Program-made: the position numbers and the translations under genes | Part shown: positions 7,998 to 25,674 of the stretch, in pieces | Layout of the letters: every line of letters starts with the position of its first letter | Numbering within the stretch: the stretch's first letter is position 1 | DNA from: Candidatus Latescibacterota bacterium | Lineage (GTDB): Bacteria > Latescibacterota > UBA2968 | NCBI GenBank assembly: GCA_965198115.1 | Contig: OZ240241.1 | Location: forward strand, 3,744,001-3,808,000 | DNA: 64,000 nucleotides | Reading direction: 5' to 3' | The notes under the pieces: generated by a model | Seen by the model: only the letters and a program-made list of their open reading frames with translations | Databases searched by the model: none | What the model was told of the DNA's origin: nothing

Positions 7998-9417
7998 GGC
8001 TATATCCGGATCTCTCAACGAGATGAAGTGGGTGAAGGTGCCGTGGTTCCTGGCATGGGGGCGCGGTTAGAGTGTGCGGAACCTCTTCGGAATCTGCTCA
8101 GGGATGTTTATGTCTCCGACGGTAAGGAAGATCATATCGTTGAATGCGTCGAGTGTGCGGAATCCGCTGGCTCGGTTCTTGACGATTTGGACGATTCGGT
8201 TGAGGCCTTCGGCGATGGCGTTGGTAAGACGCGTGTTCACGAATGCGAGGACGCCGAAGAAGTGCTGTCGCAGGGTCCTGACGAACTTTCGCAGGGGTTC
8301 AAGTCGACTTCTGAGTGCGGACGTCGTCCAGCATTTCAGGAAGCGTTCGGCAGCCCAGGGCGCTTTGTATTCCCAGAACTGCTCGAACTCGTCCTTGAGT
8401 CTCCAGGCTCTATAGATTCGGTAGTTCGCCTTCTCCAGTGCTTTGAGTGTCCGAGTATCCCCTCTGGAGCGTGTCGCTGAGTGCCGGTAGAGGAGCCATC
8501 GGAGGCCCTTCATGGCTTTGCGCTCATCCGGGGCAGCTTTACGCCACTGGTCCTTACGGACCTCGTCAACGGCGGCATTGAGAGCCTTGACGATGTGAAA
8601 GCGATCGAGGACCAGCTTGGCATTCGGACAGTGTTCCTGGATGGCTCCGATGTAAGCTTCGCTCATGTCGCAGCAGGCCCACTCGATCTTGGATCTCTGG
8701 TAGGGACTGAGAGCCTCTGTGAAGAACCGATCGATCGTTTTACGCGCCCTGCCGCGGCCAACCCACACCACGCAGGAGCGGTCCAGATCGTAAACGAGCG
8801 TGGCGTACCTGTGACGCTTGGCGTAGGAGATCTCGTCGATCCCGATGGTTTTGAGCCCTCGGATACGATGACCTTCACGAAGCCGCGTGATGGATCGGTG
8901 AAGGAGATCCGACAGCGTCGAGGCAGAGATGCGCAGTAACTCGGACGCCGCCTTCTGCGTCATGGTCTGGCAGTAGCGCAGCATGGCATACTCGAAGCGA
9001 TACGTCACCCGAGAGAACCGCTCCGCCCACGGAATCTCCTCGACCACACGACCGTGGGTAGGACACCGAATCTCCCGAGGATGGTAGAGAAGCCAGACCC
9101 TCCACCCGCACACCGGAATGTCACGCCACCGACGCGGATGGGGCATTGTGCGGACGATTTTACCTCGACGGCCGAACTCCGGACAACAACAACCATTCTT
9201 ATGTGGCTTTACGGCGATGACGAAGCAGCTTCTCCCCTCAAACCACCAGCTGACAACACGGAACCCCTTGAATCTCAGCAGTTTCGATAGTAATCTGCTC
9301 CCGGTCATAGGTCGCACCCCCTTCGCTTTGATTGTCCTACACACACAACCAAGCGTAGGGAACGATCTATGACCTTGTCATTCTATAGTTTCACCGTTGA
9401 GAAACCCGGATAGAGCC
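7998..9417 (-). mobile_element. ISL3-family insertion sequence, copy 1 (1,420 bp)
   Basis: Terminal IRs GGCTATATCCGGATCTCTCAACG / CGTTGAGAAACCCGGATAGAGCC; flanks TTTAAAAG / TTTAAAAT (7 of 8 match); near-identical to 32205-33624. Confidence 0.93.
8067..9308 (-). CDS. ISL3 transposase
   Basis: IGIDE, CCDM, LDRFH, TNAIAEGLN, GFRT; N-terminal zinc finger reads CPEF..CPTH here. Confidence 0.93.
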   Translation of the reverse strand: MTGSRLLSKLLRFKGFRVVSWWFEGRSCFVIAVKPHKNGCCCPEFGRRGKIVRTMPHPRRWRDIPVCGWRVWLLYHPREIRCPTHGRVVEEIPWAERFSRVTYRFEYAMLRYCQTMTQKAASELLRISASTLSDLLHRSITRLREGHRIRGLKTIGIDEISYAKRHRYATLVYDLDRSCVVWVGRGRARKTIDRFFTEALSPYQRSKIEWACCDMSEAYIGAIQEHCPNAKLVLDRFHIVKALNAAVDEVRKDQWRKAAPDERKAMKGLRWLLYRHSATRSRGDTRTLKALEKANYRIYRAWRLKDEFEQFWEYKAPWAAERFLKCWTTSALRSRLEPLRKFVRTLRQHFFGVLAFVNTRLTNAIAEGLNRIVQIVKNRASGFRTLDAFNDMIFLTVGDINIPEQIPKRFRTL

Positions 9418-9494: not shown

Positions 9495-11453
9495 CTATCC
9501 CGCGACCTCCTTGGCAACATCCACGCACTTGGCGGCGAACGCGTCGTAGGCGGCCCTGAATTCGGTGCTGGTCTTCTGAACGGACCCGAATCCCGGCCAG
9601 TCGCCGGGTGGCATGCCACGCGTCTGCCATCCTCCGACGTCGACTCCGACTTCCTCGAGCAGCGACTTCAACTCCGGTGTCAGATCGAACCCACGCTGGT
9701 AATCCGGCAGCTCGTATAGACGTTGTGACACACCGGGGTCATAAGAGTCGAGAATCGAATCCCTGAGCGAGGGCAGGTCGAACCCTGCTTCTTCCGACGT
9801 CAGCTGAACGGCCCGCTGGTGATTCGGGAACTCGGTATGGCACATATTGGCGCCCAACGCTTGCAGCGTGTCATCCGGCATTCGCTTGGAGGCCGGCAGC
9901 ACGTCCATCGACGCTAGAATCCACGTGGCCTGAGCCTCGTCCACACCATGGGTCTCTTGCAGCCAGCTGATCCACTTGGGACGGTTCTCGGGCGCGTAGA
10001 AAACCCAGTTGACGCGACGCGCCACGAGATTTCCGGACTTTTGCAGATCCTCTTCCAAGATTTGCACCGACTCTGCCGACCGGCCGGCGGCCCCCGCCGC
10101 AGCAACCACCTGTGGATGGTCGATTCGGGGCATGCTCTTGAACGTGCAGATCGTCTGTGCTCGCTTCGCGACCGATTCGCCCGCCACGGGATCGACCCCG
10201 AGGTCGGCTGCCAGCGCATCCAGGAACTCGTGGGCCTTTCCTTCGCCCGCCTTATCGGCACATTCCGTGAAAACCCGCTCAGCCTCGACTTCGCGAAGAT
10301 GACTCGAAAACCGTCCGCCCATGTTCGTCTCGTACGTGCGAACGACGTCCTTGCCCGCCTTCGCAGCGGCGGCCTTGCCCTCGAACGCATCCAGAATCAG
10401 CTGAACTTCCTGAGCGACCGTGTAAACCACCGTGTTGTTCGACCCGATGCCATCACTGTTCAGAACAGTCGTGATCTTCCGCGCAGCCTCGTGACTCGCC
10501 GCCACTTTGAAGACCAGGTTTGGCGCGAGAGCACCCGACCGATCGCCCAACCCCAGCAGCTTGTCGTAGTTCCCGAGGAAACTCCCGGCGACCTGGAAGG
10601 CGCTCCTCGCGTCTTCGATGCTCTCGTCCGCCTTTTCCGCGATGTTCGGGTTCAGCTGGAAGCTCACCATATAATCTTTGAGCTCCGTATGAACCGCCAG
10701 CGGACGGAAAATCGACAAGTTCGGCCACAGGGCAATCAGGGTTGCGGCCATTGCAATCTCGTCGGCGTGGCCTTCGGGGTTCTGCTTCCAATCGTCGTGC
10801 TGGGCGATCTCTTTCTTGAGCTCCTCGGCCAGCCCGGGGTCTTCGTCGAACGCCTTCGCCGCCAGGACAGGATTTGTCGACACCTGACAGAACCCGTAGT
10901 GCCGCAGATACTCGAGTCCGCGTGCAAAATCGTTTCCAAATTTGCAGTAGTCCTCGCCGATCATCCTCCAGTAAACGCCACTTCGCAGCTGCTTCTTGAG
11001 CTCTGCCAGAAACGACCCCCCCGGATTGCCCTTGTCTAGATCGCCCTCGATCCGCTCGGCGAGAAGACCCGACAGACTGTCGGAGAGATTGACGGACTTC
11101 ATGTCGGCCAGGAATTCGTCGACGACACTGCCCATCGCGTCACTCTCTTCACCGGACAGACCCTCGATCGAGGTGAGCACGCTCGATAGGGCAGAATCGG
11201 CCTCGTCCGACCCGTAACCGACGATTTCGGCGTCCCGACCGACAAAATTCATCCCCAGACGAATCAGTGTGCGACACACTTCGTCGGCCGAGGCCCCGTT
11301 CCCCGTCACGGCGCCGATCAATTCGTCGACACGCGTCGACAGGGTGCCCGGCTCGGGATCAATCAGTACTCGATCGGCGACCGCCAGGCTTTGCCCCTGC
11401 TCGAGCGCCTCTGCGACGCCACTGGAAATCTGACTCATTCGATCGTCCTCCAT
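9495..11453 (-). CDS. Large transaldolase/FSA-family protein (652 aa)
   Basis: GND, VSTNPVL, SFQLNP, NLVFKV (Schiff-base Lys), NNTVVYTVAQ, preceded by a long N-terminal extension. Confidence 0.75.
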   Translation of the reverse strand: MEDDRMSQISSGVAEALEQGQSLAVADRVLIDPEPGTLSTRVDELIGAVTGNGASADEVCRTLIRLGMNFVGRDAEIVGYGSDEADSALSSVLTSIEGLSGEESDAMGSVVDEFLADMKSVNLSDSLSGLLAERIEGDLDKGNPGGSFLAELKKQLRSGVYWRMIGEDYCKFGNDFARGLEYLRHYGFCQVSTNPVLAAKAFDEDPGLAEELKKEIAQHDDWKQNPEGHADEIAMAATLIALWPNLSIFRPLAVHTELKDYMVSFQLNPNIAEKADESIEDARSAFQVAGSFLGNYDKLLGLGDRSGALAPNLVFKVAASHEAARKITTVLNSDGIGSNNTVVYTVAQEVQLILDAFEGKAAAAKAGKDVVRTYETNMGGRFSSHLREVEAERVFTECADKAGEGKAHEFLDALAADLGVDPVAGESVAKRAQTICTFKSMPRIDHPQVVAAAGAAGRSAESVQILEEDLQKSGNLVARRVNWVFYAPENRPKWISWLQETHGVDEAQATWILASMDVLPASKRMPDDTLQALGANMCHTEFPNHQRAVQLTSEEAGFDLPSLRDSILDSYDPGVSQRLYELPDYQRGFDLTPELKSLLEEVGVDVGGWQTRGMPPGDWPGFGSVQKTSTEFRAAYDAFAAKCVDVAKEVAG

Positions 11454-13779: not shown

Positions 13780-15903
13780 TCAGTTTCTTCGTGAATCCGT
13801 GAGCTGCAGAGCGCGTGCGACCGTGTTGTAGACATCGTCCAGGTCGGAGAAAGGCTTGGCAAGATGAAAATCGAACAGACCGATCCGTGCGTCGTCGTTC
13901 GAAAGATTCCATCCCGTGATCAGGACGGTGGCGACGTCGGGGTCGATCGCCTTGATCTCGCCAACGATCGCGTTACCCGGTCGACCGGGAAGACCCAGGT
14001 CGATCAGGACCGCGTCGTAGCTTTTCTGTTGGACTGAGGACACCGCGCTGTTTCCGTCCGCCACGGTGTCGACCTCGTGGCGCCCTCGCAAGAGACTGCG
14101 CACCGCCGCGCGTACTTCAGAATCATCGTCCACGATGAGCACACGTCCCGGGCGCGTGTCCAGTCTGTCACCCCCCGCTGCCCCCTTCTCGATCGACTCT
14201 TTCGTCGACGGAAGCCAGATCGTGAACGTTGTTCCCCGTCCGGGGGTGCTCTCCACAGTGATGCGGCCATCGAAACCAGTAATCGTCCCATACACCGTCG
14301 ACAATCCCAGCCCACTGCCCACGTCCCGCTTCGTCGTAAAGAACGGCTCGAAAACACGCGCCGACGTCTCTTCGTCCATCCCCACGCCGGTGTCCTCGAA
14401 CGTCAGCTGAACACCCCCGGCCGCTTCCATCGTCCTGACCGTGATCGTCCCGCCCTTGGGCATCGCGTCGACAGCGTTCATGATCAGGTTGACCAGGGTG
14501 TCGTGAAGACCGCCGACCGTGGCCATCACCGCCGGCAAGGACGACAGGCGCTTGACGACTCTGACTTCGTCGCCGCGCGCTTCGGGTTCGTCGCGCCACC
14601 GCGGCCGGGTCGTCAGGAAAGCCTCCTCGACGATGTGGTTCACGTCGACGGGACTGACGACTTCGTCCTTGAGCCCACGTACGTAAAGGTGAAGACGCTG
14701 CACCAGATCGCGAGCTCTACGCGAGGCTCGAGAAACGATATCCAGATGCCGTCTGATCGCCTCGTCTTCAACCACTTCCTCCAAAATCTGCGTCGGACCC
14801 AGGATGCCCGTCAGGATGTTGTTCAGGTTGTGACTGACGCCCGCGGACAGCTCGCCGAGGGCACGTAGTCGTTCCAATCGCACGAACTCCTGCTGCGTCT
14901 GCTCCCGTTTGCTCACATCCCGAAAACTCCAAACGCGACCCGCGACCTCGCCCTCCCTCAAGAGGGGCCACGACAGTCGCTCGAACACCCGTCCATCCTT
15001 GAAGTGAAGCGTATCGACGAATTCCTGGTCTGTCGAGTAGATCTCCTCCAGACGTTTGGCGAAAGCTTCAGGATCTTTCAGCTGGGGTTTGGCGAACGTC
15101 AACATCTTGTCGCTGTCGGACCCGAAGAGATGGTTGGGCATTTGCCACAGTTCCTTGAATCGCTCGTTGCAGAGTACGACCTGATCGTCAGCGCCGACGA
15201 CCAGGATCCCGTCTTCGGTAGCCTCCATCGTGGACCTCAAAAGCTGCGCGTTGTCTCTCAGTTCTTCCTCCACGTGGATCCGCTGAGCGATTTCTTCTTT
15301 CAGCTGCCGATTGGCCTCCTCCAGTTCCGCCGTCCGGCTCGCAACCTGTTCCTCGAGCGAAGAGCGTGACAGCAGTGTGTCGAACACGCGTGCGACGGTC
15401 GCAATGCCGGAGGCCACGGCTTCGGCCGTCTCCAGGTGATCGTCAGAATAGACGTCGGGTGCCCGACTCGTGAAGTTGAACGTGCCCACGGTCTTCCCGT
15501 CGACCAGGATCGGGACGATCAGGTCAGACAACATACCCTCGGCAACACGACGACCATCGTGTTCGAACCGCATTTCTTTGGAGATGTCGCCCCGCAACAG
15601 GGACTGACGGTGGGCGATAGCCCACAGACTCGCCGATATCTCGGCATCTTCCAGCGGATACGGACGTCCGAAGATCTGCGTCCCCGACGCGCCCTTGACT
15701 CGACCGTCTTCGACGCGGTAGCATTGATCCCACACCTGCAGACCGAACGTGAAGCGATCGAACGGAATCAGCGGCAGCAGAATGTCATTGATCCGTAGGA
15801 CAATAGCTTCTGTCGGTTTTCCGCTATTGATCGTCTCGATGATATCGAGCACGGCGCGAGCCCGTTTGAGGGCAAGCGTTTCCGATGACGCAAGATCGGT
15901 CAT
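13780..15903 (-). CDS. Hybrid sensor histidine kinase (GAF-PAS-HisKA-HATPase-REC)
   Basis: GVSHNLNN H-box, NLIMNAVDAM, DTGVGM, FEPFFTTK, GSGLGL; REC LIVDDD..IDLGLP..KP. Start could be GTG 15921. Confidence 0.92.
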   Translation of the reverse strand: MTDLASSETLALKRARAVLDIIETINSGKPTEAIVLRINDILLPLIPFDRFTFGLQVWDQCYRVEDGRVKGASGTQIFGRPYPLEDAEISASLWAIAHRQSLLRGDISKEMRFEHDGRRVAEGMLSDLIVPILVDGKTVGTFNFTSRAPDVYSDDHLETAEAVASGIATVARVFDTLLSRSSLEEQVASRTAELEEANRQLKEEIAQRIHVEEELRDNAQLLRSTMEATEDGILVVGADDQVVLCNERFKELWQMPNHLFGSDSDKMLTFAKPQLKDPEAFAKRLEEIYSTDQEFVDTLHFKDGRVFERLSWPLLREGEVAGRVWSFRDVSKREQTQQEFVRLERLRALGELSAGVSHNLNNILTGILGPTQILEEVVEDEAIRRHLDIVSRASRRARDLVQRLHLYVRGLKDEVVSPVDVNHIVEEAFLTTRPRWRDEPEARGDEVRVVKRLSSLPAVMATVGGLHDTLVNLIMNAVDAMPKGGTITVRTMEAAGGVQLTFEDTGVGMDEETSARVFEPFFTTKRDVGSGLGLSTVYGTITGFDGRITVESTPGRGTTFTIWLPSTKESIEKGAAGGDRLDTRPGRVLIVDDDSEVRAAVRSLLRGRHEVDTVADGNSAVSSVQQKSYDAVLIDLGLPGRPGNAIVGEIKAIDPDVATVLITGWNLSNDDARIGLFDFHLAKPFSDLDDVYNTVARALQLTDSRRN

Positions 15904-15933
15904 ACGTCTCCCTGACAACACGCAAGACAGATT

Positions 15934-16903
15934 CTACAGCTGCTGGATCCGTGCCATAACCTCGTCGTCGATTTCCAGCCCTTCAGCCTGACGAGCCGAT
16001 CGCTCCCGAAACGCCCGCTCACCCGGAATCAGAATCTCGGCCACTCCTTCGGCTCGTTTCGACGACTTGACCCGCGATACGAACGCAGTGACGGAAGCGT
16101 CAAAGTCAGCCTTTTCGATGAAAATCTGAGGGTCGATCGCCACAATGAACAGCCCGTAGTCCTGACCGGGCTCCGGAACGGGGGCGCCTCCCATCATGAT
16201 GCCCGTGAGCACCTGAATCATCACGGCCAGCGCGTAGCCTTTGTGTCCACCGAAGGGTAGCGCACCGCCCGTCTGCGCCTTTTCCGGATCGGTGGTCGCC
16301 TCGCCGTCCGGTCCTACGGCAACACCCTCCGGGATGGGAAGGCCGTCCTTGATGGCCATCAGAATCTCGCCATTCGTGACGGCTGCAGAGGCCAGGTCGA
16401 CCAGGATTTGCCCGGACGTCGCCGGGAACGCAGCGGCAATCGGATTCGTCCCCAGAACCGGTTCGGCTCCGCCGTGAGGCACGATTCTTGGATTCGTGTC
16501 GCACATAGCCAGACCGACCATTCCCGCGTCAGCCATCATCGACACGTAGTAACCCAGCATACCGCAATGACTCGTGTTGTTGGCCCCGACCAGACCCACA
16601 CCGGATCGGTCGGCGCGCCCGATGGCCGTCCTTGCGGCTCGATGTGCGACCAGGTAGCCCAGATTCTCCTGACCGTCGATCAACGCATAGGCCGCTCTCG
16701 CGGGCGAGTTTCATGGCCTGGCGCGGGCGCTCACCCACGCGATCGGCAATCCCGGGCAGCCGGATCATCCCGTGTGTCGCGCGACCCCGAAGTTCGGCCT
16801 CGACCAGAATGTCGGTCACGATCTCGGCGTCTTCTTCGCTGAGGTTCCGATCGACCAGAACCCGGTTCGAAAGATCTCTGAGGTGTTCTTCCAGGATTCG
16901 CAT
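15934..16903 (-). pseudogene. Ldh_2 (malate/L-sulfolactate dehydrogenase-like) oxidoreductase, frameshifted near 16690
   Basis: N-terminus EAELRGRATHGMIRL in one frame; DGQENLG, SHCGMLG, GTNPIA, PFGGHKGYAL, IPGER in the next. May be an intact gene with a sequencing error. Confidence 0.82.
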
Positions 16904-17066
16904 CGAATCGCTCGATTCCAAAAGTCTGGGGCGAGGCAGGGGAAGATAGGGGCCACCGACTCCCATCGCAACACAGGTAGGGGGGATTGGGGTTGCCGCG
17001 GGACCCCCAGCCATCCATATTTTGTGATCATACACCGACTTACGCTGACTCGAGACCCACATAGCT

Positions 17067-17502
17067 ATGGCTAAACGCATCCGAACCGGCCTTCCGGCAC
17101 GCCGGATTCCAACCGCCCTGTCGGAACACCAAAGAGCCGCGATCATCCGACGAATGAATGCCCTCAGGGGACGCAAGCAATTCGTGGCGGAGATCGCGCG
17201 TCAGGCGACGCAGGCGCGTGGACGCATCGACGACGACGTCTACGGCATTGTCCAGGCCACTCTCGAAGCACTCGCCCATAACCGTGGAGCCCCGCCCCCT
17301 CGTGTTTGCCGTCAGCCACTATCAGACAGGCAAAGTCGAACAGGTCGGTTTCCTCCCTCCGGGCGTTCGGCAGTTCCCTTCACGTGGTCGCTTCATCACC
17401 AACGATCCTCGCTTCTCCCGCGAGCGGCTAACGGGCGTAGATCCCGACGCCCTACCCGCCCCACCCCGACAGCTCGAAGGCCCAGACCGTGCCGACCCCT
17501 AA
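17067..17502 (+). CDS. Hypothetical protein (~144 aa if a +1 frameshift near 17290 is repaired)
   Basis: MAKRIRTG..LEALAHNRG reads as protein, then the protein-like reading continues in the next frame (PLVFAVSHYQTGKVEQVGF..) to TAA 17502. Confidence 0.45.
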
Positions 17503-20500
17503 TCAAGGCGTCGCCATCAAATCCTATTCGCCTGGCGAGCTACGACTGCTCGCGGCCGAGGGCCGACTCAAGGGGCGGGCGTCGATCAGCTGGTCAACCT
17601 GCGAGGCACCGCCGACGCCGACCGAGCCATCGGCGAACACGCCTTCTACGCCCTCGCTGCAAGGATGTCCTGCTGGACCGATCCGCTCGACCTCGTTCGC
17701 ACGTTTCTCGCCCTGGCAAGAACACCGAGCCCCTCAGGCGAAGAGGACGCCGTCGCGGACGTGATCTTACCTCGACTCAACGAGCTCGGATTCGCGGTCG
17801 AACGCGACGCCGTGGGCAACCTGATCGCTCACCTGCCATTGACCTCAACCACCGCACCCAACTTGCTGTTCACCGCACATATGGACTGCGTTTACCCCGG
17901 TGGGTCCGCGCCAGTCGTAGCGGTTCTCCACCGCTCGGGCGACATCGCAACCGACGGCCGGAACAGTTTGGGAGCCGATGACAAGGCAGGCATCGCGGCC
18001 ATTCTCGCGGCCCTCCGTTTCATCGTCCACGGGGAATCGCCACACGGCGAAATCAGGGTGGTCTTCACAGTGCAGGAAGAACGCGGTTGGAGGGGCATCA
18101 AGCAGGTCCCCGCGCGTATCCTGAACGGGATTCACCTCGTCTTCAGTATGGATCCGCCGGTGCGCGTCGAACGGGACGAAACAGCTTTTATGGCCGTGCT
18201 TCACGCCCACCGGGGGCACCCGATTGAGGACCTGGTTCGGTCCGCCGCCCTCGACGTGGACGGGGATCCGCTGATCCTCTATGCCGAAGACGGCTACGTC
18301 GGTGGAGACACCATCTGCCTGTCCCCCCTGGGCGCCCTCGTCGTCGACTTCTGTTCGGGCAGCCGCTACTCCCACACGACCCACGAACACATCCGGCTCA
18401 TCGACTTCACGCGGCAGACGAGTTGGATGATCGCGACGGCCGAGCGCTTTCTGCGTCTGGATCGGAACGACCTCGAGCTGCGTGCCGTCTATGGCGAAGA
18501 ACCCATCGGCAACCTGACGGGTGTCCGCAAGCAGATCCCGCTCACACCCGACTTCCTCGCCGAGAAGATCGCCCAGGCCAGAAGCCTCCACACCCTTCCC
18601 GGTCCGAGTCTGGCAAACACACTGGCGCACCTCTCGGCGATGGCCCCGCGTGCGGGCGACCCCGACCTCCTCGACGCCGTCGTCCAGGCCTACGCGCAGG
18701 GCCTTCGCGTCGACCAGGTGCCGCAGGTTCAGCGCGCGATCACTTCGGCCCTGATGCACCTCGCTACGAACCTCGCCGACGTGCGTCCACTCGAACCGGT
18801 AATTCCTGTCGTTCGGAGCTTCATCGTTGGCGGAGGCGACGACACGGCTCGTGCCAGCGCCATACGGTTCCTCGAAGAGCTCTTCGTCAAAGAACGGCGC
18901 GTGCGTGTGAAGGAAGACCTCGTACGCACCCTGATCGTAATGCTTCAGAGTGCGTCTCCGACTGTAACGGAGTGTCTGACCAACTTCTTCCGGACGAACC
19001 TGGACGACACGATCCACGCGCTCACCCTGGCGTTCTGCAACCGTCACCGGGCGGGATGGGAGCGACTCACACGGGTCAACCAGGGCCGCCTCGTCGACGG
19101 TCGCAAGCGACGGTCCGACGCCCCGGGGTGGACCCTGATCCGTCAGCGCATACTCCAGCTCCTTTTGGAGGAAGACCGGCTCCTCCCGGAGATGCTCGAC
19201 TGGATCTTCACCCACGACGGAGGCGCCACCCAACGGATCGCGGTCGACTACATCGACCCGGGGAAGACCACGCGCGTCGCCGACCGGATCCTCAGAAACC
19301 TCAAGAGCCGCGAGCGCGGCGTTCAGGAAACAGCGTTACACTTCGTCGGCAGTCACCGAATGGAGCAGGCCATCCCGCCGCTGATCGACCTGCTCCTGAC
19401 GCCCCATCTCTGCCGCAATCGCAGCCTCGCCGAGTGGGCCCTCGACGCGATTGGTCGCCCGGCGCTCGACCCGGTCATCAACCGTCTCGGTGCCGACGCG
19501 GAGTACGAGACGTTGGTCTGGAGAATGTTCAACCGACACGACACGTCGACGGACGCGGACTTCGATCTGTTGATCGACAGGCTTGCGAACCAATACGGCA
19601 AAGCCTTCTCGCCGTCCGATCCGTCACAGGTGATGATCCTCTCTTATTACCTCAGCATCGACCCGTTCACCCACCTGACAGACCTCACCCGGTGGGATCG
19701 ACGTCGATCGATCGTCTTCTACGATCGACTGATGGAGCTCTACACGGATGGAGAGGAAGTCAATCGACTGGTCGAGCTGATCGAAGAGTGCGAGGGCGGA
19801 TCACGAACGTATTTCCTCCGAATGTCGATCCAGAAGAATCTGTTCGAAGATCCGGGCCTGCTGGCGCTCGTGTCACGCGAGAACGCTCGCTTCCTCGAAA
19901 ACTTCGTCCGTCTCGAAAATCAGATTCCTCAACACATCATCCTCGCGCGACTCAGGGAGTTCGCGAACGGCGCGCAGCTGGATATGCGCGACCCGAACGA
20001 CGTCGAGATCTACTACCTCTACCTGCTTCAGCAGAGCCCCCGGATGCCCGACCGGACGCAGTATCTGACCCACATCGCCGAAGCGGCCCGGTATCTGTTC
20101 CCGCCGTTGAAACCTTACTGCAAGGCCTTCAGCATTTCGGGCGATCGTATCGAGGAGGTCGGGACGGTCGATCGGGACCGCGTTCGCACGCTCATCGAGA
20201 GCCTCCCACAAAAGGCTTCGCGTTCGGAGCGTCTCCGCCGGCTCATTCTCGACAGCGGGCTCGCCAAACGCGAGCAGAACCGCCTCATCAACGGGCTGAG
20301 CGAGGCCATCGGCATCGACGTCAGCCCCTACAGCTCCGTCGAGGACCGCGCAGACGCTCTGATCCACGAAATCGACTTCGAATTCGACTCGGCCTACCGA
20401 ATCGTACCGCTCGTCGTGTATCCTGTCCTGATGCGCGTCCGGATGAACCATCGAAGCGACGGCGTCCTCAGTCCTCTGGCTGACTACGCGATCGAATTCG

Positions 20501-21708
20501 CGATGATCAACCACCCCGAAATCGCCGAAACCTTCGACACCAGCGAAATCGACCTGATCCTCGATGGGCTGAACGACCTGCTGACGGACCGGGTCTATGA
20601 AGCAGAGCGAGAGCTGTTGGAAGATGTGTTTCCAGAGCTCCTCGATCGTCACAAAGACACACTCGGGAAGTTCCACACCAGCCAGTGGCGCTCGATCGTC
20701 AAGCGACTCGAGAGCTACGTCGAAGACGGTCGCCAGCGCGATCTGTTCGACACGACCATCGAAACGATGGAAGACTACGACATCACCGACGACGAAGCGG
20801 CCGCCCTACTCGACACGAACCTCGCTCGTCTCGTCGCCGTCGTTCGACCCACCGATCGGGACCTCCTGACGACGCACGCTCGACACCGCGAATTCCACCA
20901 GGTTTACGATGCCATCCTGCGTGTACGGAATCTTCGACAGCTCAAACGGATCTACAAAGAGGTCTATCTGATCCTGCAGGACACGATCTCCTACGCGAGT
21001 CGCGAACACCCATCAAAAGAGAAGCCGTCGACGCGTCTGCAGGGTGGGGACGAGGCAGAAGAGGTCACGCGGTCGCCCTACGCCACGGAGAAGGGATACC
21101 TCAAATACGCGCGAAAGGAGCTTGGACGGCTCACCAAACTGATGAGCGATTTCGTGCTCGAGCGCACCCTGGCCGATCGGCTCCGCATCGTCCAGTCGGA
21201 AATCACGAAGCTGCGCCAGGTCGTCGTGGGCACCCATCAGATCCTCTGCGTGCCGAGCAAAGACGTCAGCATCATCTACCGAAGCTGGCCGGGCAACGAC
21301 TGCAACACGGGAGACATCAAGCAGATCCTTTGCCCCGACGGCTCCTTTTACAAGATCATCGCGGACGGGCACTGGAAGGGCTACTTCACGCTCGTCGAGC
21401 TCCGTCGTCGCAACCAGCGCGGATTTTTGCTCGACGTGTTGAACTTCAGCGGGCTGCGGATGGACAACGAGAGTTTCGTCAAGGTCCTGATGCACCAGAT
21501 CATCCAAACCGCACAGGCTGAGGGCGTCGACTACGTCCTGGCCAGCCCGAACGACGTCCATCTGTCGAACCGCGATTACATTCGACGCGCCTTCCGAAAA
21601 GTCTTCCCCGTTCTTGGTACCGAGCAGACCTTCGGTCTCATCAACGAACCCCGAGCCAACTTCCAATCGCTTCAACCGAACCTCGCCGTCGTCTGGAAAC
21701 GGGACTGA
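17489..21708 (+). CDS. Giant M20-like metallopeptidase - HEAT/helical repeat - C-terminal alpha/beta domain protein
   Basis: ORF 17665-21708 (1,347 aa) has AHMD, GADDKAG, QEERG, SMD, GGD, SHTTHE; HEAT-like AIPPLIDLL..AEWALDAIGRPALDP. Probable true start GTG 17489 with one G missing at 17572-17575. Confidence 0.8.
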
Positions 21709-21721
21709 CCACGACGATTGG

Positions 21722-21760
21722 TTCGTCTCTCGATTCTCAATCCTCAATTTTCGATTCTCC
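21722..21760. repeat. Degenerate heptamer tandem repeat
   Basis: TCGATTC TCAATCC TCAATTT TCGATTC units in the intergenic gap. Confidence 0.6.
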
Positions 21761-21767
21761 ATCACCA

Positions 21768-22673
21768 ATGCCCGAGTATCCTGATGTCGAAGTCTACGTC
21801 CGATGCCTCAGGAAGCGCGTCGTCGACCAGGTCATCGAAGACGCCCGCATCGCCAGTCCCTTCGTCGTCAGAACCTACGATCCACCGATCGGCGACATCG
21901 TTGGAAAGCGAATCCTGACCGTCAGCCGTCTCGGCAAGCGTATCGTCCTCGGCCTCCAGGATGACCTCCATTTCGTCCTGCATCTGATGATCGCCGGCCG
22001 GCTCCGCTGGAAAGAGCGCGGCGTCAAGCTTGCCCGCCGCCTCGGTCTGGCCGCGATCGATTTCTCCGACGGCAGCCTCAGCTTCACCGAAGCCGGAACG
22101 AAGAAACGTGCTTCGATCCATCTCGTCCGCGGCAGAGACACCTTGACCGAATTCGATCGCGGCGGCATCGAGGTGTTCGAAGCTTCCATCGACGCCTTCG
22201 ATCGTGCACTCCGGTGCGAAAACCACACCCTCAAGCGTTCCCTCACCGATCCTCGTCTCTTCTCCGGCATCGGCAACGCCTACTCAGACGAAATCCTGCA
22301 TCGTGCCGGACTTTCCCCCCTCAAGCACTCGACCCGGCTGACCGAAGACGAAGTCGAGCGACTCTTCGAAGCCACACGTGACACCCTCGCCGAATGGACC
22401 GAGCGACTCGAAGAGGAGGTCGGCGACGGGTTCCCCGACAAGGTCACCGCCTTCCATCCGGAAATGGCCGTCCACGGCAAGTATGATCAGCCCTGCCCCG
22501 AATGCGATTCCCCCGTCCAGCGCATCCGCTATGCCGAGAACGAATGCAACTACTGCGCAACGTGCCAGACCGACGGTAAGGTCCTCGCCGACCGAGGTCT
22601 CTCGCGCCTGCTCAAGCAAGACTGGCCCCGAACGTTAGAAGACCTCGAAGAACTTCGAAAACCAAACCCATGA
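21768..22673 (+). CDS. Fpg/Nei family DNA glycosylase
   Basis: MPEYPDV N-terminus, RLGK, HLMIAG, SGIGNAYSDEILH (H2TH), C-terminal CxxC..CxxC finger. Confidence 0.93.
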   Translation: MPEYPDVEVYVRCLRKRVVDQVIEDARIASPFVVRTYDPPIGDIVGKRILTVSRLGKRIVLGLQDDLHFVLHLMIAGRLRWKERGVKLARRLGLAAIDFSDGSLSFTEAGTKKRASIHLVRGRDTLTEFDRGGIEVFEASIDAFDRALRCENHTLKRSLTDPRLFSGIGNAYSDEILHRAGLSPLKHSTRLTEDEVERLFEATRDTLAEWTERLEEEVGDGFPDKVTAFHPEMAVHGKYDQPCPECDSPVQRIRYAENECNYCATCQTDGKVLADRGLSRLLKQDWPRTLEDLEELRKPNP

Positions 22674-23101
22674 AACACGAAGACGCGAAGACACCAAGAA
22701 AGGCGATGAGGCACCCTTCTCTGTCGGAGGAGGAGGAGAAATCGGGGTCCGAGATCGTCGATGTAGCATTTGCCGTACACGCTGCGATGGGTTCTGGACT
22801 CTTGGAGAGCATTTACGAAAAGTGCTTTGGCCACGAGCTCGGTCTTCGTGGCTTGAAAGTTGATCGTCAGGTCTCCATCCCTATTCGATACAAAGATCTT
22901 GACTTGAAGGACGGACTTAGATTGGATGTGTTGGTCGAGGATAAGGTGATCTGCGAGATTAAGGCGACCAATTCCGACACAGCAATCTTCGAGGCACAAC
23001 TGCTCACCTACATGAAACTCAGCCAGAAACGCCTCGGCTTCCTCATCAACTTCAACGTTCCCAAGATCGAGGACGGGATCACCCGAATGGTCCTTCGATG
23101 A
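22670..23101 (+). CDS. GxxExxY protein (PD-(D/E)XK nuclease-like)
   Basis: GSGLLESIYE, RLDVLVEDKVICEIKA, AQLLTYMKL, GFLINF; ATGA overlap with the glycosylase gene. Confidence 0.93.
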   Translation: MKHEDAKTPRKAMRHPSLSEEEEKSGSEIVDVAFAVHAAMGSGLLESIYEKCFGHELGLRGLKVDRQVSIPIRYKDLDLKDGLRLDVLVEDKVICEIKATNSDTAIFEAQLLTYMKLSQKRLGFLINFNVPKIEDGITRMVLR

Positions 23102-23165: not shown

Positions 23166-24392
23166 ATGGGTGTTGACACCATAGAATTGCCAAACGGAAT
23201 ACGCGTCGTCGTGGAGCCGATGGCGGGGGCGAAATCTGTCGTGCTGGCGATGCGGTTCGGGTTTGGCGCGAAGGACGATCCGCACGATCGGTTGGGAATG
23301 GCTCGGATCGCGGAGGATGTCCTGTTCAAGGGCACACCCAGTCGGGATGCGCGGGAGGTCTTCGATGCGTTCGATGCCCTGGGCGTACGACGTGGGTCCT
23401 CGACGCAGGTCGAACACACGCAGTTCCAGGCGCAGTTTCTGCCAGAACATTTCGAATCCGTCTGTGCGCTCTACGAGGAAATGTTCAGCACGGCCTCGTT
23501 CCCCGCCGCGGAAGTCGACGTGACGAAGACCATCACGCTCGAGGAACTCAAGCGGCTCGAGGACAGTCCGATTCAACAGGCGATGCTGCTGACTTTCAAA
23601 GCCGCTCTGGGGGAACCGCTCGGGCGCGTGCCGCTCGGCGAACCGCAGACGCTCGAGCTGGTGACGCCAGCGGGCGTTCGGCGTTTCTGGACCGACCACT
23701 GTCGACCCGATACCCTCATCATCTCTGTCGCCGGCGGGATCGATCGAGAACGAGTCGTTGAAACGATCCAGGATGTCTTCGGTGGCTGGGCGAGCAATGG
23801 CACGGTTGAGCCGGATGACCACGCGGTGACGATCGTCGATCGTCAGGTCCATCACGAGAAAGAATCGGAACAGGAACACATCGGCATCGTCTTTGGATCG
23901 GTGCCGCGGGGACACGACTTCTACTATCCTGCGCAGGTGGCGATCGCCGTACTCTCAGGAAGCGGGTCGAGCCGGCTCTTTACCGAAGTGCGCGAGAAGC
24001 GTGGACTGGCCTACAGTGTCTCCGCCTTTTACAGGGCGCGAAGGAACGGTGGCCTGATCGCCCTTTACGCCGGCACCACGGCCGATCGTGCGGAGGAAAC
24101 GCTTCGTGTGTGTCGTCACGAAGTCGCCAGATTGGCCGAGGATGTGACCCGAGACGAGCTCGGGCGCGCCAAGACCGTCCTCAAGGGCGGTTTGTTCACG
24201 ACCGGTGATCTTCCCGAGGGGCGAGCGAGCAGCCTTCTCGAAGACGTGTTCCTCGACGGAAACACGCGGACGATCCAGGAAATCGCTGACCGGGTCGACA
24301 GCGTCACGCTCGACCAGATCTCGACCTACCTCAGAGCACACCCCACCGAACCCCAAACCATCGTCACCCTCGGCCCGAAACCTCTGAACTGA
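23166..24392 (+). CDS. M16 peptidase, non-catalytic subunit
   Basis: HXXEH replaced by RIAED; retains SRLFTEVREKRGLAYSV. Confidence 0.9.
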   Translation: MGVDTIELPNGIRVVVEPMAGAKSVVLAMRFGFGAKDDPHDRLGMARIAEDVLFKGTPSRDAREVFDAFDALGVRRGSSTQVEHTQFQAQFLPEHFESVCALYEEMFSTASFPAAEVDVTKTITLEELKRLEDSPIQQAMLLTFKAALGEPLGRVPLGEPQTLELVTPAGVRRFWTDHCRPDTLIISVAGGIDRERVVETIQDVFGGWASNGTVEPDDHAVTIVDRQVHHEKESEQEHIGIVFGSVPRGHDFYYPAQVAIAVLSGSGSSRLFTEVREKRGLAYSVSAFYRARRNGGLIALYAGTTADRAEETLRVCRHEVARLAEDVTRDELGRAKTVLKGGLFTTGDLPEGRASSLLEDVFLDGNTRTIQEIADRVDSVTLDQISTYLRAHPTEPQTIVTLGPKPLN

Positions 24393-24402
24393 CCGACCCG
24401 GA

Positions 24403-25674
24403 GTGTCGACAAAGCACATATCTCGGATCCAAATGAACTCACCATTCAGCAAACACACACTCAATAACGGCCTCACTCTCCTCTTCGAGGCCATCCCGAG
24501 AATCAACTCCGCCGCCGTCGGCTTTTTCGCGAACACCGGATCACGCGACGAGGCAGCCGAACAGGGCGGCATCTCGCACTTCCTCGAACATATGTGCTTC
24601 AAAGGAACCAGTAAGCGAGACTGGCGGCAGCTGAGTCTCGATGTCGATGACCTCGGCGCCACGTGGAATGCCTACACGTGGTGGGAAGGCACCGCCTATT
24701 TCCATTGGGTTCAGAGCGAGCGGGCGACGCAGTCGATCGAGATCCTCGCCGATATGATGCGATCGACGATTCCGAACGAGGAATTCGACACCGAGAAAAA
24801 GGTCATCCTCGAAGAGATCGCGATGTATCACGACCGTCCCGATTCGCTCATCTTCGACGAGCTGATCAGAACCGCCTTTCCCGATCATCCACTGGGACAA
24901 TCCGTGATCGGTACGGAGGACACCGTCGGCGCGCTGACCCGCGATCAGATGGCCGATTACTACGCGCGTCGATACGCACCTGACAATATGACGTTCATCG
25001 TAACCGGAAAGTTTGACCAGGACGAAATCGTCGCCACCGTCGAATCGCTCTGCGGCGACTGGACGCCCGGCGAATCGGGACGCGAACAGCCTGACCCGAC
25101 GTTCACAGGACAGACCCACGTGGTGGAACGCGACAACGTGACCCGCGAACACGTCACGATGGCCTTCCCGGCGCCGTTCGGCGCCAGTCCAGATGCCACG
25201 ACGGCAGAGATGCTCTCATCCTACCTGGGCGCATCGACCAACAGTCGCCTGTATTGGGCGGTCGTTCAGAACGGATTGGCCGACGAAGCCACAGCGGACT
25301 ACATCGGTCTCAGCGATACCGGACTGTTCTACATTTATCTCTCCGTCGATCCGAGCCGAACCGAAGAAGCCCTCGACGTCGTGCGCAGGGAATGCCGAGC
25401 CCTACACGAGCAGATCGATGGCGAATCACTCGAGCGCGCCAAGACCAGGGCCGCAACGTCCGTCGTGTGCAGCGGTGAGCATGGGCTACAGCGTTTCGGT
25501 CAGCTCGTCGGCGATATCAGCTGCAACGCCCCCCTCCGATCGCTCGATCAGCAGATCGACGAGATTCGCGCCGTCGATGCGGATCGAATCGCGGCCTACC
25601 TCGCGACCTATCCCCTCGACCGAGAACCCGCACTCGTCGCCCTCGGTCCGCTGTCTGACCTATCTCGTGCCTAA
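24403..25674 (+). CDS. M16 peptidase, catalytic subunit
   Basis: GSRDE..GISHFLEHMCFKGT, NAYT, EKKVILEE. Start may be ATG 24433. Confidence 0.92.
   Translation: MSTKHISRIQMNSPFSKHTLNNGLTLLFEAIPRINSAAVGFFANTGSRDEAAEQGGISHFLEHMCFKGTSKRDWRQLSLDVDDLGATWNAYTWWEGTAYFHWVQSERATQSIEILADMMRSTIPNEEFDTEKKVILEEIAMYHDRPDSLIFDELIRTAFPDHPLGQSVIGTEDTVGALTRDQMADYYARRYAPDNMTFIVTGKFDQDEIVATVESLCGDWTPGESGREQPDPTFTGQTHVVERDNVTREHVTMAFPAPFGASPDATTAEMLSSYLGASTNSRLYWAVVQNGLADEATADYIGLSDTGLFYIYLSVDPSRTEEALDVVRRECRALHEQIDGESLERAKTRAATSVVCSGEHGLQRFGQLVGDISCNAPLRSLDQQIDEIRAVDADRIAAYLATYPLDREPALVALGPLSDLSRA

Follow-up and report, generated by a model that had tools for sequence, protein, structure and literature searches.

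A family of predicted GNAT-fold domains with a near-invariant Asp-Cys pair, fused to a lidless M20 peptidase domain in Candidatus Latescibacterota

Background

We describe a pair of genes in a window of 64,000 nucleotides (contig OZ240241.1 of assembly GCA_965198115.1, positions 3,744,001 to 3,808,000) from a bacterium of Candidatus Latescibacterota, the phylum being named from the titles of its relatives. A small gene precedes a giant gene, whose product joins a PepT-like M20 peptidase domain, a long helical scaffold and a C-terminal domain of predicted GNAT fold. This last domain, which we call xDC-GNAT, is an unnamed domain family and represents the main finding of this work. Judged by their sequences, known kinds of enzyme are joined here in an undescribed combination: no characterised family matches the architecture, as a preliminary description made from the letters of this DNA had supposed, and no description of an M20-HEAT-GNAT fusion, of PcfJ together with a GNAT in polyvalent proteins, or of a cysteine GNAT in Saganbacteria was found in the full-text literature, most subscription papers being beyond reach.

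We favour, tentatively and at a little short of an even chance, a reading in which the giant protein would be a scaffolded amine-editing enzyme. The helical scaffold would hold a target, one of whose amino groups would receive an acyl or aminoacyl group from the GNAT-fold domain via its conserved Cys; the lidless M20 domain would remove an N-terminal residue or an acyl group from such a target. The Cys would then be a thioester carrier and the target a macromolecule, the two activities would be coupled, either as trim-then-cap or as write and erase, and the small protein would act as a regulator or partner. An acylate/deacylate role had been put forward in the preliminary description and is still a plausible candidate.

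The xDC-GNAT domain and its family

The xDC-GNAT domain (21232..21708, + strand) carries D1212-C1213 (21298-21303), G1239, D1257, N1260, S1301-N1302 and F1333. All of the C-terminal motifs quoted in the preliminary description are present in the window's frame, and the GNAT-like fold which it suggested is recovered both in the predicted topology and in the fold matches. The model of residues ~1199-1345 arranges its strands and helices in GNAT order and places the Asp-Cys pair in the loop preceding the sheet, Asp-1257 of the DxxN motif on strand 4 and N1302 of the SN motif after strand 5. GNATs commonly carry a coenzyme A (CoA)-contacting Asn after strand 5. On structural re-alignment, most of the 50 listed matches are GNAT acetyltransferases, with Z 6.0-7.5 and a root-mean-square deviation (rmsd) of 3.4-5.5; Foldseek also returns GNATs for the C-terminal model, with probabilities of up to 0.97-0.98 but E values above 0.05, and the Pfam family Acetyltransf_4 is matched by 4 of 12 members (best E 2.7e-4). 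The predicted order of strands and helices is therefore shared with GCN5, NatD/Naa40, RimI, AAC(6') and AtaT/TacT, whereas the domain described here differs from these GNATs in having no motif A and in following a long helical scaffold; its near-invariant Asp-Cys, ahead of the sheet, and its DxxN (strand 4) and SN (after strand 5) also set it apart. Motif A (Q/R-x-x-G-x-G/A) was found in 0/35 distant and 0/12 close sequences.

A HMMER scan of 1.84 billion representative sequences with a profile of the C-terminal domain gave 45 matches: four close proteins, three short fragments and a more distant set of 38 proteins, 242-2,482 aa in length. Conservation was counted over 37 distant rows, each spanning more than 90 columns, with one distant row dropped and no close full-length member among them. 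D1212, G1239 and D1257 are kept in 37/37 of these domains, C1213, S1301 and N1302 in 36/37 and N1260 in 34/37, while P1197 and F1333 are nearly invariant. The Asp and the Cys of the motif first written as 'GxDC' have thus stood, whereas its Gly is found in 26/37, and the motif is better given as xDC. Taken together, Asp-Cys, DxxN and SN look like a catalytic set of residues. Using the deep xDC profile we found no paralog in this genome and no relevant PDB sequence; 29 unnamed Atlas clusters at ~0.94 for the C-terminal domain are a lead only.

Searched against Pfam at E 0.001, 34 of the 38 distant proteins (some of which are fragments) gave no match, three matched M20/M28/M42 and the remaining one showed weak kinase-like and sigma-54 matches. 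In three of the distant proteins (P0079, P0081 and P0082) the whole plan is repeated, with a lidless M20 domain bearing a DxPVR loop, a helical middle and the xDC domain, and a fourth (P0086) has the scaffold of these three without the M20 domain. Scaffold and xDC-GNAT thus appear to form the core, to which one branch has added the peptidase. Several hundred residues usually precede the xDC domain in members of the family and are related within subgroups. Two of the ten distant members that were looked up could be assigned to a taxon, one to Spirochaetota and one to Saganbacteria. In the Saganbacteria protein P0117 (2,482 aa) and in P0119 (1,641 aa) the xDC domain lies inside a very large protein; past this domain, P0117 shows a weak kinase-like (Kdo/WaaP) match.

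These counts bear on a further reading, namely that the GNAT domain catalyses nothing itself but senses acyl-CoA and switches the peptidase on, as in Mycobacterium ICL2, a protein that shares a C-terminal GNAT-like domain but carries a different enzyme. The structure 6edw is among the fold matches (Z 6.1), a lidless M20 domain may need activation, and acyl-CoA is reported to activate ICL2 (PMC6788997). The xDC family, however, is mostly without an enzyme domain: a peptidase domain is seen in three of the 38 distant proteins, yet Asp-Cys, DxxN and SN are kept, and motif A, moreover, is absent. We regard such a sensor as very unlikely, and the sensor-activated protease of the preliminary description is weakened because most distant family members show no peptidase domain.

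A PcfJ-like domain (PF14284), which has a similar succession of strand, helix, cysteine motif, helix and strands, was also considered and is not supported, as there was no Pfam hit and hhalign gave probabilities of 0.2% and 0.1% against 10 PcfJ sequences of the order, a shallow template profile. RimI-like GNATs are reported in polyvalent proteins (PMC5512222), in passages that do not name PcfJ. PcfJ-domain genes themselves number four in this genome (G000:C1:406041, 4568937, 5857015 and 7267158), and chromosomal-looking ones occur in 31/53 genomes of the order.

The lidless M20 peptidase domain

The N-terminal domain (17665..18474, + strand) is a PepT-like metallopeptidase domain of clan MH without a dimerisation domain. 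It matches Pfam M20 (E 1.2e-7) and TIGR01883 (E 2.4e-29), the latter at 102.5-114.4 bits and hence below the curated PepT family cut-off of 274.25, and the PepT-like assignment agrees across Pfam, NCBIfam, PDB sequence and structure. The model has the clan MH catalytic fold, with the PepT-like structures 3gb0 (Z 27.9, rmsd 2.3, 246 residues aligned) and 3rza (Foldseek E 1.2e-10) closest to it. All of the metal ligands are kept, as had been noted: the active-site residues H72, D74, D105, E138, E139, D163 and H237 are invariant in 8/8 aligned rows and recur in the three distant fusions, which are 27-36% identical over the M20 part.

Also upheld is the earlier remark that there is no room for the M20 dimerisation insert. 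From the EE pair to the last His there are 96-97 residues (97 in the window), compared with 218 in this genome's own PepT-like paralog, and the profile skips PepT residues ~150-298, so that the inserted dimerisation domain of ~120 residues is missing. At its position, after D163, lies an invariant DPPVR loop that is modelled with low confidence. The domain thus shares its catalytic fold and all metal and catalytic residues with the M20B PepT-like tripeptidases (TIGR01883; 3rza, 3gb0, 1fno), but differs from them in this short loop and in the ~1,080 further residues fused to it. The shortened distance implies that the lid is gone, and the active site should then admit larger substrates.

A clan MH fold without a dimerisation domain is shared with the M28/M42 aminopeptidases (1rtq, 1cp7) and with engineered DapE domains (4h2k, 4onw), the comparisons with M28/M42 and DapE catalytic-domain structures giving Z 20.0, 19.9 and 22.4; in contrast to M28/M42, the M20 sequence of the giant protein is PepT-derived. 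M28 enzymes are active without a dimerisation domain. Since DapE needs this domain and M28 does not, the M20 domain of the giant protein may or may not be active.

The helical scaffold

The two domains are joined by a scaffold of ~900 residues (18547..21231, + strand), HEAT-like in its first half and all-helical in two structure models of the giant protein (mean predicted local distance difference test score, pLDDT, 80.3 and 76.7; predicted template modelling score, pTM, 0.53 and 0.49). These models bear out the proposed order of a ~900-aa helical scaffold followed by an alpha/beta C-terminal domain. The HEAT_2 match at residues 511-593 is weak and sub-threshold (E 4.5e-4, 20.9 bits against a cut-off of 27.7). 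The best helical structural match, Z 10.3, falls under the tool's bar of ~13 for bundles, and a match to the helical insert of RIG-I/Dicer (Z up to 10.3) was accordingly treated as a common bundle.

The scaffold contains an invariant segment, FxIxGDRIEEVGTV (residues 819-836; 20119..20172, + strand), which the model sets, at low confidence, alongside the GNAT sheet, at its edge. Most GNAT alignments start at model residue ~197, where this segment has pLDDT below 50, and the first strand of the GNAT domain is possibly supplied by residues 819-836, 370 residues upstream, if the model is followed.

The small partner gene and the reading frames in the window

The small gene (17067..17502, + strand) encodes a protein of 138-159 aa in relatives, with a basic N-terminus and no known family. 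No Pfam family below E 0.06 (10 rows), no PDB match and no Atlas cluster was found for it. A profile of the small gene matches 10/53 genomes of the order, in nine of which it adjoins the giant gene and in one of which it is a remnant. That homologs keep the small gene upstream, a check which the preliminary description had proposed, is the case in relatives, and it is lost together with the giant gene. A complex prediction with residues 1-840 of the giant protein scored 0.00, which gives no verdict either way, and the tie between the two proteins is genetic only. A predicted sigma-70-type promoter (16993..17021, + strand; -35 TTGCCG, 17-nt spacer, -10 CATATT) would serve the small gene, the giant gene and probably the M16 peptidase pair downstream. 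Aligned across loci, ATATT is found in 9/9 and TTGAC in 6/9; a simple promoter scanner scored 0 sites in the window, where the -35 element is degenerate.

Neither gene is a single frame in the window. The small gene runs in one frame from 17067 to ~17290 and in another from ~17290 to 17502, the frameshift lying near 17285-17300. Past the TAA at 17500, the long frame of the giant gene on the + strand stays open for 1,401 codons and ends at 21708, with its first ATG at 17665 giving 1,347 aa (P0001). The conserved N-terminus of the gene, from GTG 17489 to ~17578, is out of frame with the remainder. We therefore place the true start at GTG 17489, with a conserved extension of 59 codons (17489..17664, + strand; low model confidence) and a frameshift near 17575-17582 (~17577). 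A relative at 87% identity (P0050) has an unbroken giant protein of 1,406 aa, exactly as long as the window's would be if it had no frameshift. The protein of ~1,400 aa and the Arg-rich gene of 144 aa in the preliminary description thus correspond to a real giant gene and a real small gene with a basic N-terminus upstream, but products of 1,406 and 144 aa are intact in relatives only, since both genes are frameshifted in the window. The reported overlap of 14 bp is likewise present here (GTG 17489 to TAA 17502) and is not conserved, the genes being separated by gaps of 54, 74 and 4 nt at three other loci (L020, L023 and L031).

The frameshifts in the giant and small genes are probably real. 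Contigs from two runs of a single sample, from which this assembly may derive, match the window without gaps over 15800-22002, and a contig from a second sample (427 nt, depth 3.3; 151-nt contigs in this sample suggest short reads) equals 17211-17637 without differences, so repeating both breaks and making sequencing errors unlikely. An assembly chimera is ruled out by 27 homologs and by window-matching contigs from three runs, and a single protein made of the small and giant genes by their separate open reading frames in relatives. The window's copy of the pair is probably a recent pseudogene. Three frameshifts lie within ~900 bp, in the Ldh_2 gene (near 16700), the small gene and the giant gene, whereas dapA, dapB, tal, M16, ispH and gfo are intact.

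Distribution, inheritance and loss

A word-indexed search with residues 280-1347 found 27 further proteins with identities of 57-88%, those of full length having 1,397-1,469 aa. The fusion is therefore not unique to this assembly: it recurs in numerous others and also in another, distant clade. With a profile of the C-terminal half, the gene was found in 12/168 genomes of the phylum, many of them incomplete, all 12 being of one order and spread over 8 genera; in the two largest genera it was found in 0/21 and 0/15.

The pair, hereafter the module, lies at a fixed site, in which tal, dapB, (pckA), dapA, (HAD) and ldh2 on one strand are followed by the small gene, the giant gene and the M16 pair, with ispH among the chromosomal neighbours in all loci. 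Of eleven genomes without an intact module that were checked at this site, three hold scars and eight are clean absences; in G081 the scar joins the beginning of the small gene to the final 116 giant codons, in G002 it consists of the last 64 giant codons and in G010 of a piece of the small gene. In a dapA+dapB tree of 20 loci with a midpoint root (L021, which has no dapA/dapB, was left out) the losses sort into six groups, each nested among carriers (support 98-100%), and the module has been deleted at least six times. The tree of the giant gene is broadly congruent with that of its neighbours, and the module is inherited vertically.

Pairwise ratios of non-synonymous to synonymous substitution rates (dN/dS) are 0.03-0.09 in the giant gene and 0.06-0.08 in the small gene, compared with 0.04-0.14 in the neighbours, values which are rough because dS is near saturation and which indicate purifying selection on the giant and small genes. 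A frameshift is present in 5/10 near-complete loci, each at a different place, and some broken giant alleles recur on 6-11 contigs; the excess of frameshifts per kb over the neighbours is not significant (p 0.05-0.17), and ~7 frameshifts were counted when 132 pairs of orthologs from this genome and its congener were compared. At locus L024 (8570-8640) a 20-bp tandem duplication breaks the giant gene in a chromosome-level assembly. From the fixed site, the nested losses, the low dN/dS and the recurrent frameshifts it follows that the small-giant pair is an ancestral, selected and dispensable (accessory) unit.

Dispensability, with at least six losses, is also what might be expected if the pair were an anti-phage or conflict system, in which the scaffold would sense a foreign protein, the enzyme domains would poison the cell or the invader and the small protein would inhibit them, a role that can coexist with amine editing. 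The frameshifts in half of the near-complete loci, the broken alleles on several contigs, the scatter of the family in Spirochaetota and Saganbacteria and the position of a small gene before a GNAT-bearing gene point the same way. Against this, the chromosomal site (dap, ispH and M16 genes) is the same in all loci, the giant-gene tree broadly follows that of the neighbours, and the frameshift excess falls short of significance. PADLOC 2.0 gave no match at E 0.001 among nine proteins, including three family members (best E 0.0046), or among 21 distant proteins, and no match was found in plasmids or phages. In PHROGs only the peptidase part was matched, and a candidate viral locus (L070) proved to be a chance motif in the shadow frame of an unrelated phage-like gene. 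Type II GNAT toxins (AtaRT, TacAT) are stand-alone proteins of less than 200 aa, whereas the xDC domain ends a protein of 1,400 aa; as to the ribbon-helix-helix antitoxin encoded upstream in such systems, the small gene shows no Pfam family within the limit given above and no PDB match. A conflict system is thus distinctly unlikely in our view, and the phage response once suggested finds no support at this fixed housekeeping locus.

Neighbouring genes

An M16 peptidase pair (23166..25674, + strand), the first member without HxxEH and the second with HFLEH, resembles heterodimeric M16 enzymes. It lies directly downstream in 8/9 relative loci (L018-L020, L021, L023, L024, L028 and L031), L025 ending inside the gene, and is likely to be on the same transcript as the module. 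This arrangement, together with the missing motif A and the near-invariant Cys and Asp, would suit an xDC domain that uses its GNAT fold for thiol hydrolysis (as an amidase, peptidase or thioesterase) and not for transfer, the giant protein then being a degradation machine of two hydrolases that works with the M16 pair. No conserved His, however, is found among the columns kept at ≥70% in the alignment of distant domains, and the first M16 gene is present in 48/53 genomes of the order but the module in 12, so that the M16 pair is independent of the module. We consider a thiol hydrolase quite unlikely.

The adjoining dapA and dapB genes suggest a further reading, in which a small metabolite would be the substrate of acylation and deacylation by the two domains, for instance in diaminopimelate synthesis. 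M20 deacylases act in diaminopimelate-type pathways, but an LL-DAP aminotransferase scores above cut-off in this genome and bypasses acylation, and dapA is kept in genomes without the module; these two observations rule out a DAP acylase role. The domain is, besides, PepT-like rather than DapE-like, and a scaffold of 900 residues would be superfluous. A small-metabolite role is rated highly improbable, chiefly because of the LL-DAP aminotransferase.

On the other side of the module is a divergent gene of the Ldh_2 family (15934-17176, - strand), split by its frameshift. No counterpart of the HAD gene present at the site in relatives was found in this genome at E 1e-15. In this genus an insertion with an Fpg-like glycosylase gene and a GxxExxY gene (21768-23101, + strand) separates the giant gene from the M16 pair, and in one protein (P0047), found on 2-4 contigs, the last 130 giant residues are fused to an Fpg-like protein, a probable deletion scar. 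Further away, a transaldolase-like protein of 652 aa (9495-11453, - strand) is far longer than usual, below all NCBIfam cut-offs and conserved at the site across the order; it adjoins an open reading frame that by eye resembles an ISL3-type transposase (8067-9344, - strand).

Weighing the amine-editing reading

The Asp-Cys before the sheet, the strand-4 Asp and the Asn after strand 5 would fit acyl transfer through a thioester, and a lidless aminopeptidase on the same chain would fit a target larger than a tripeptide. Eukaryotes process N-termini with methionine aminopeptidase and NatA/NatD, which have helical auxiliary subunits. The analogy is one of an aminopeptidase, a helical scaffold and a GNAT together, as the peptidase clan here is another, the parts form one polypeptide and no sequence similarity is shown; NatD ranks with the best of the GNAT matches (Z 7.1-7.2), leading other GNATs by less than 1.

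Several observations weigh against an amine-editing enzyme. The loop bearing the Cys has pLDDT below 50; no Foldseek match of the C-terminal model reached E 0.001, and the Z values are middling; the absence of motif A makes acyl-CoA binding uncertain; and with pTM at ~0.5 the models do not show both domains working on one target. An engineered DapE without its dimerisation domain is reported to be inactive (PMC4012986), and the lidless M20 domain could by the same token be poorly active. The neighbours, finally, persist after loss of the module and give no clue to the substrate.

Implications

If the amine-editing reading is extended to its fullest form, xDC-GNAT would be a new class of Cys-dependent acyl or aminoacyl transferase that ends large scaffolds in several poorly cultured phyla and that, in these Latescibacterota, would form with a lidless aminopeptidase a one-chain machine trimming and re-capping protein N-termini under the control of a small co-inherited partner. 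This extended form is unlikely as a whole. The family nevertheless offers a testable signature of catalytic appearance, made up of Asp-Cys, DxxN and SN, on what is predicted to be a GNAT fold without the usual CoA-binding loop, and the giant protein offers a natural M20 domain without the part that DapE needs for catalysis, its active site being kept in two distant clades. Intact alleles (among them P0050 and P0009) are available for direct assay. If both domains do act on one target, the giant protein would represent a new route of bacterial protein-terminus editing.

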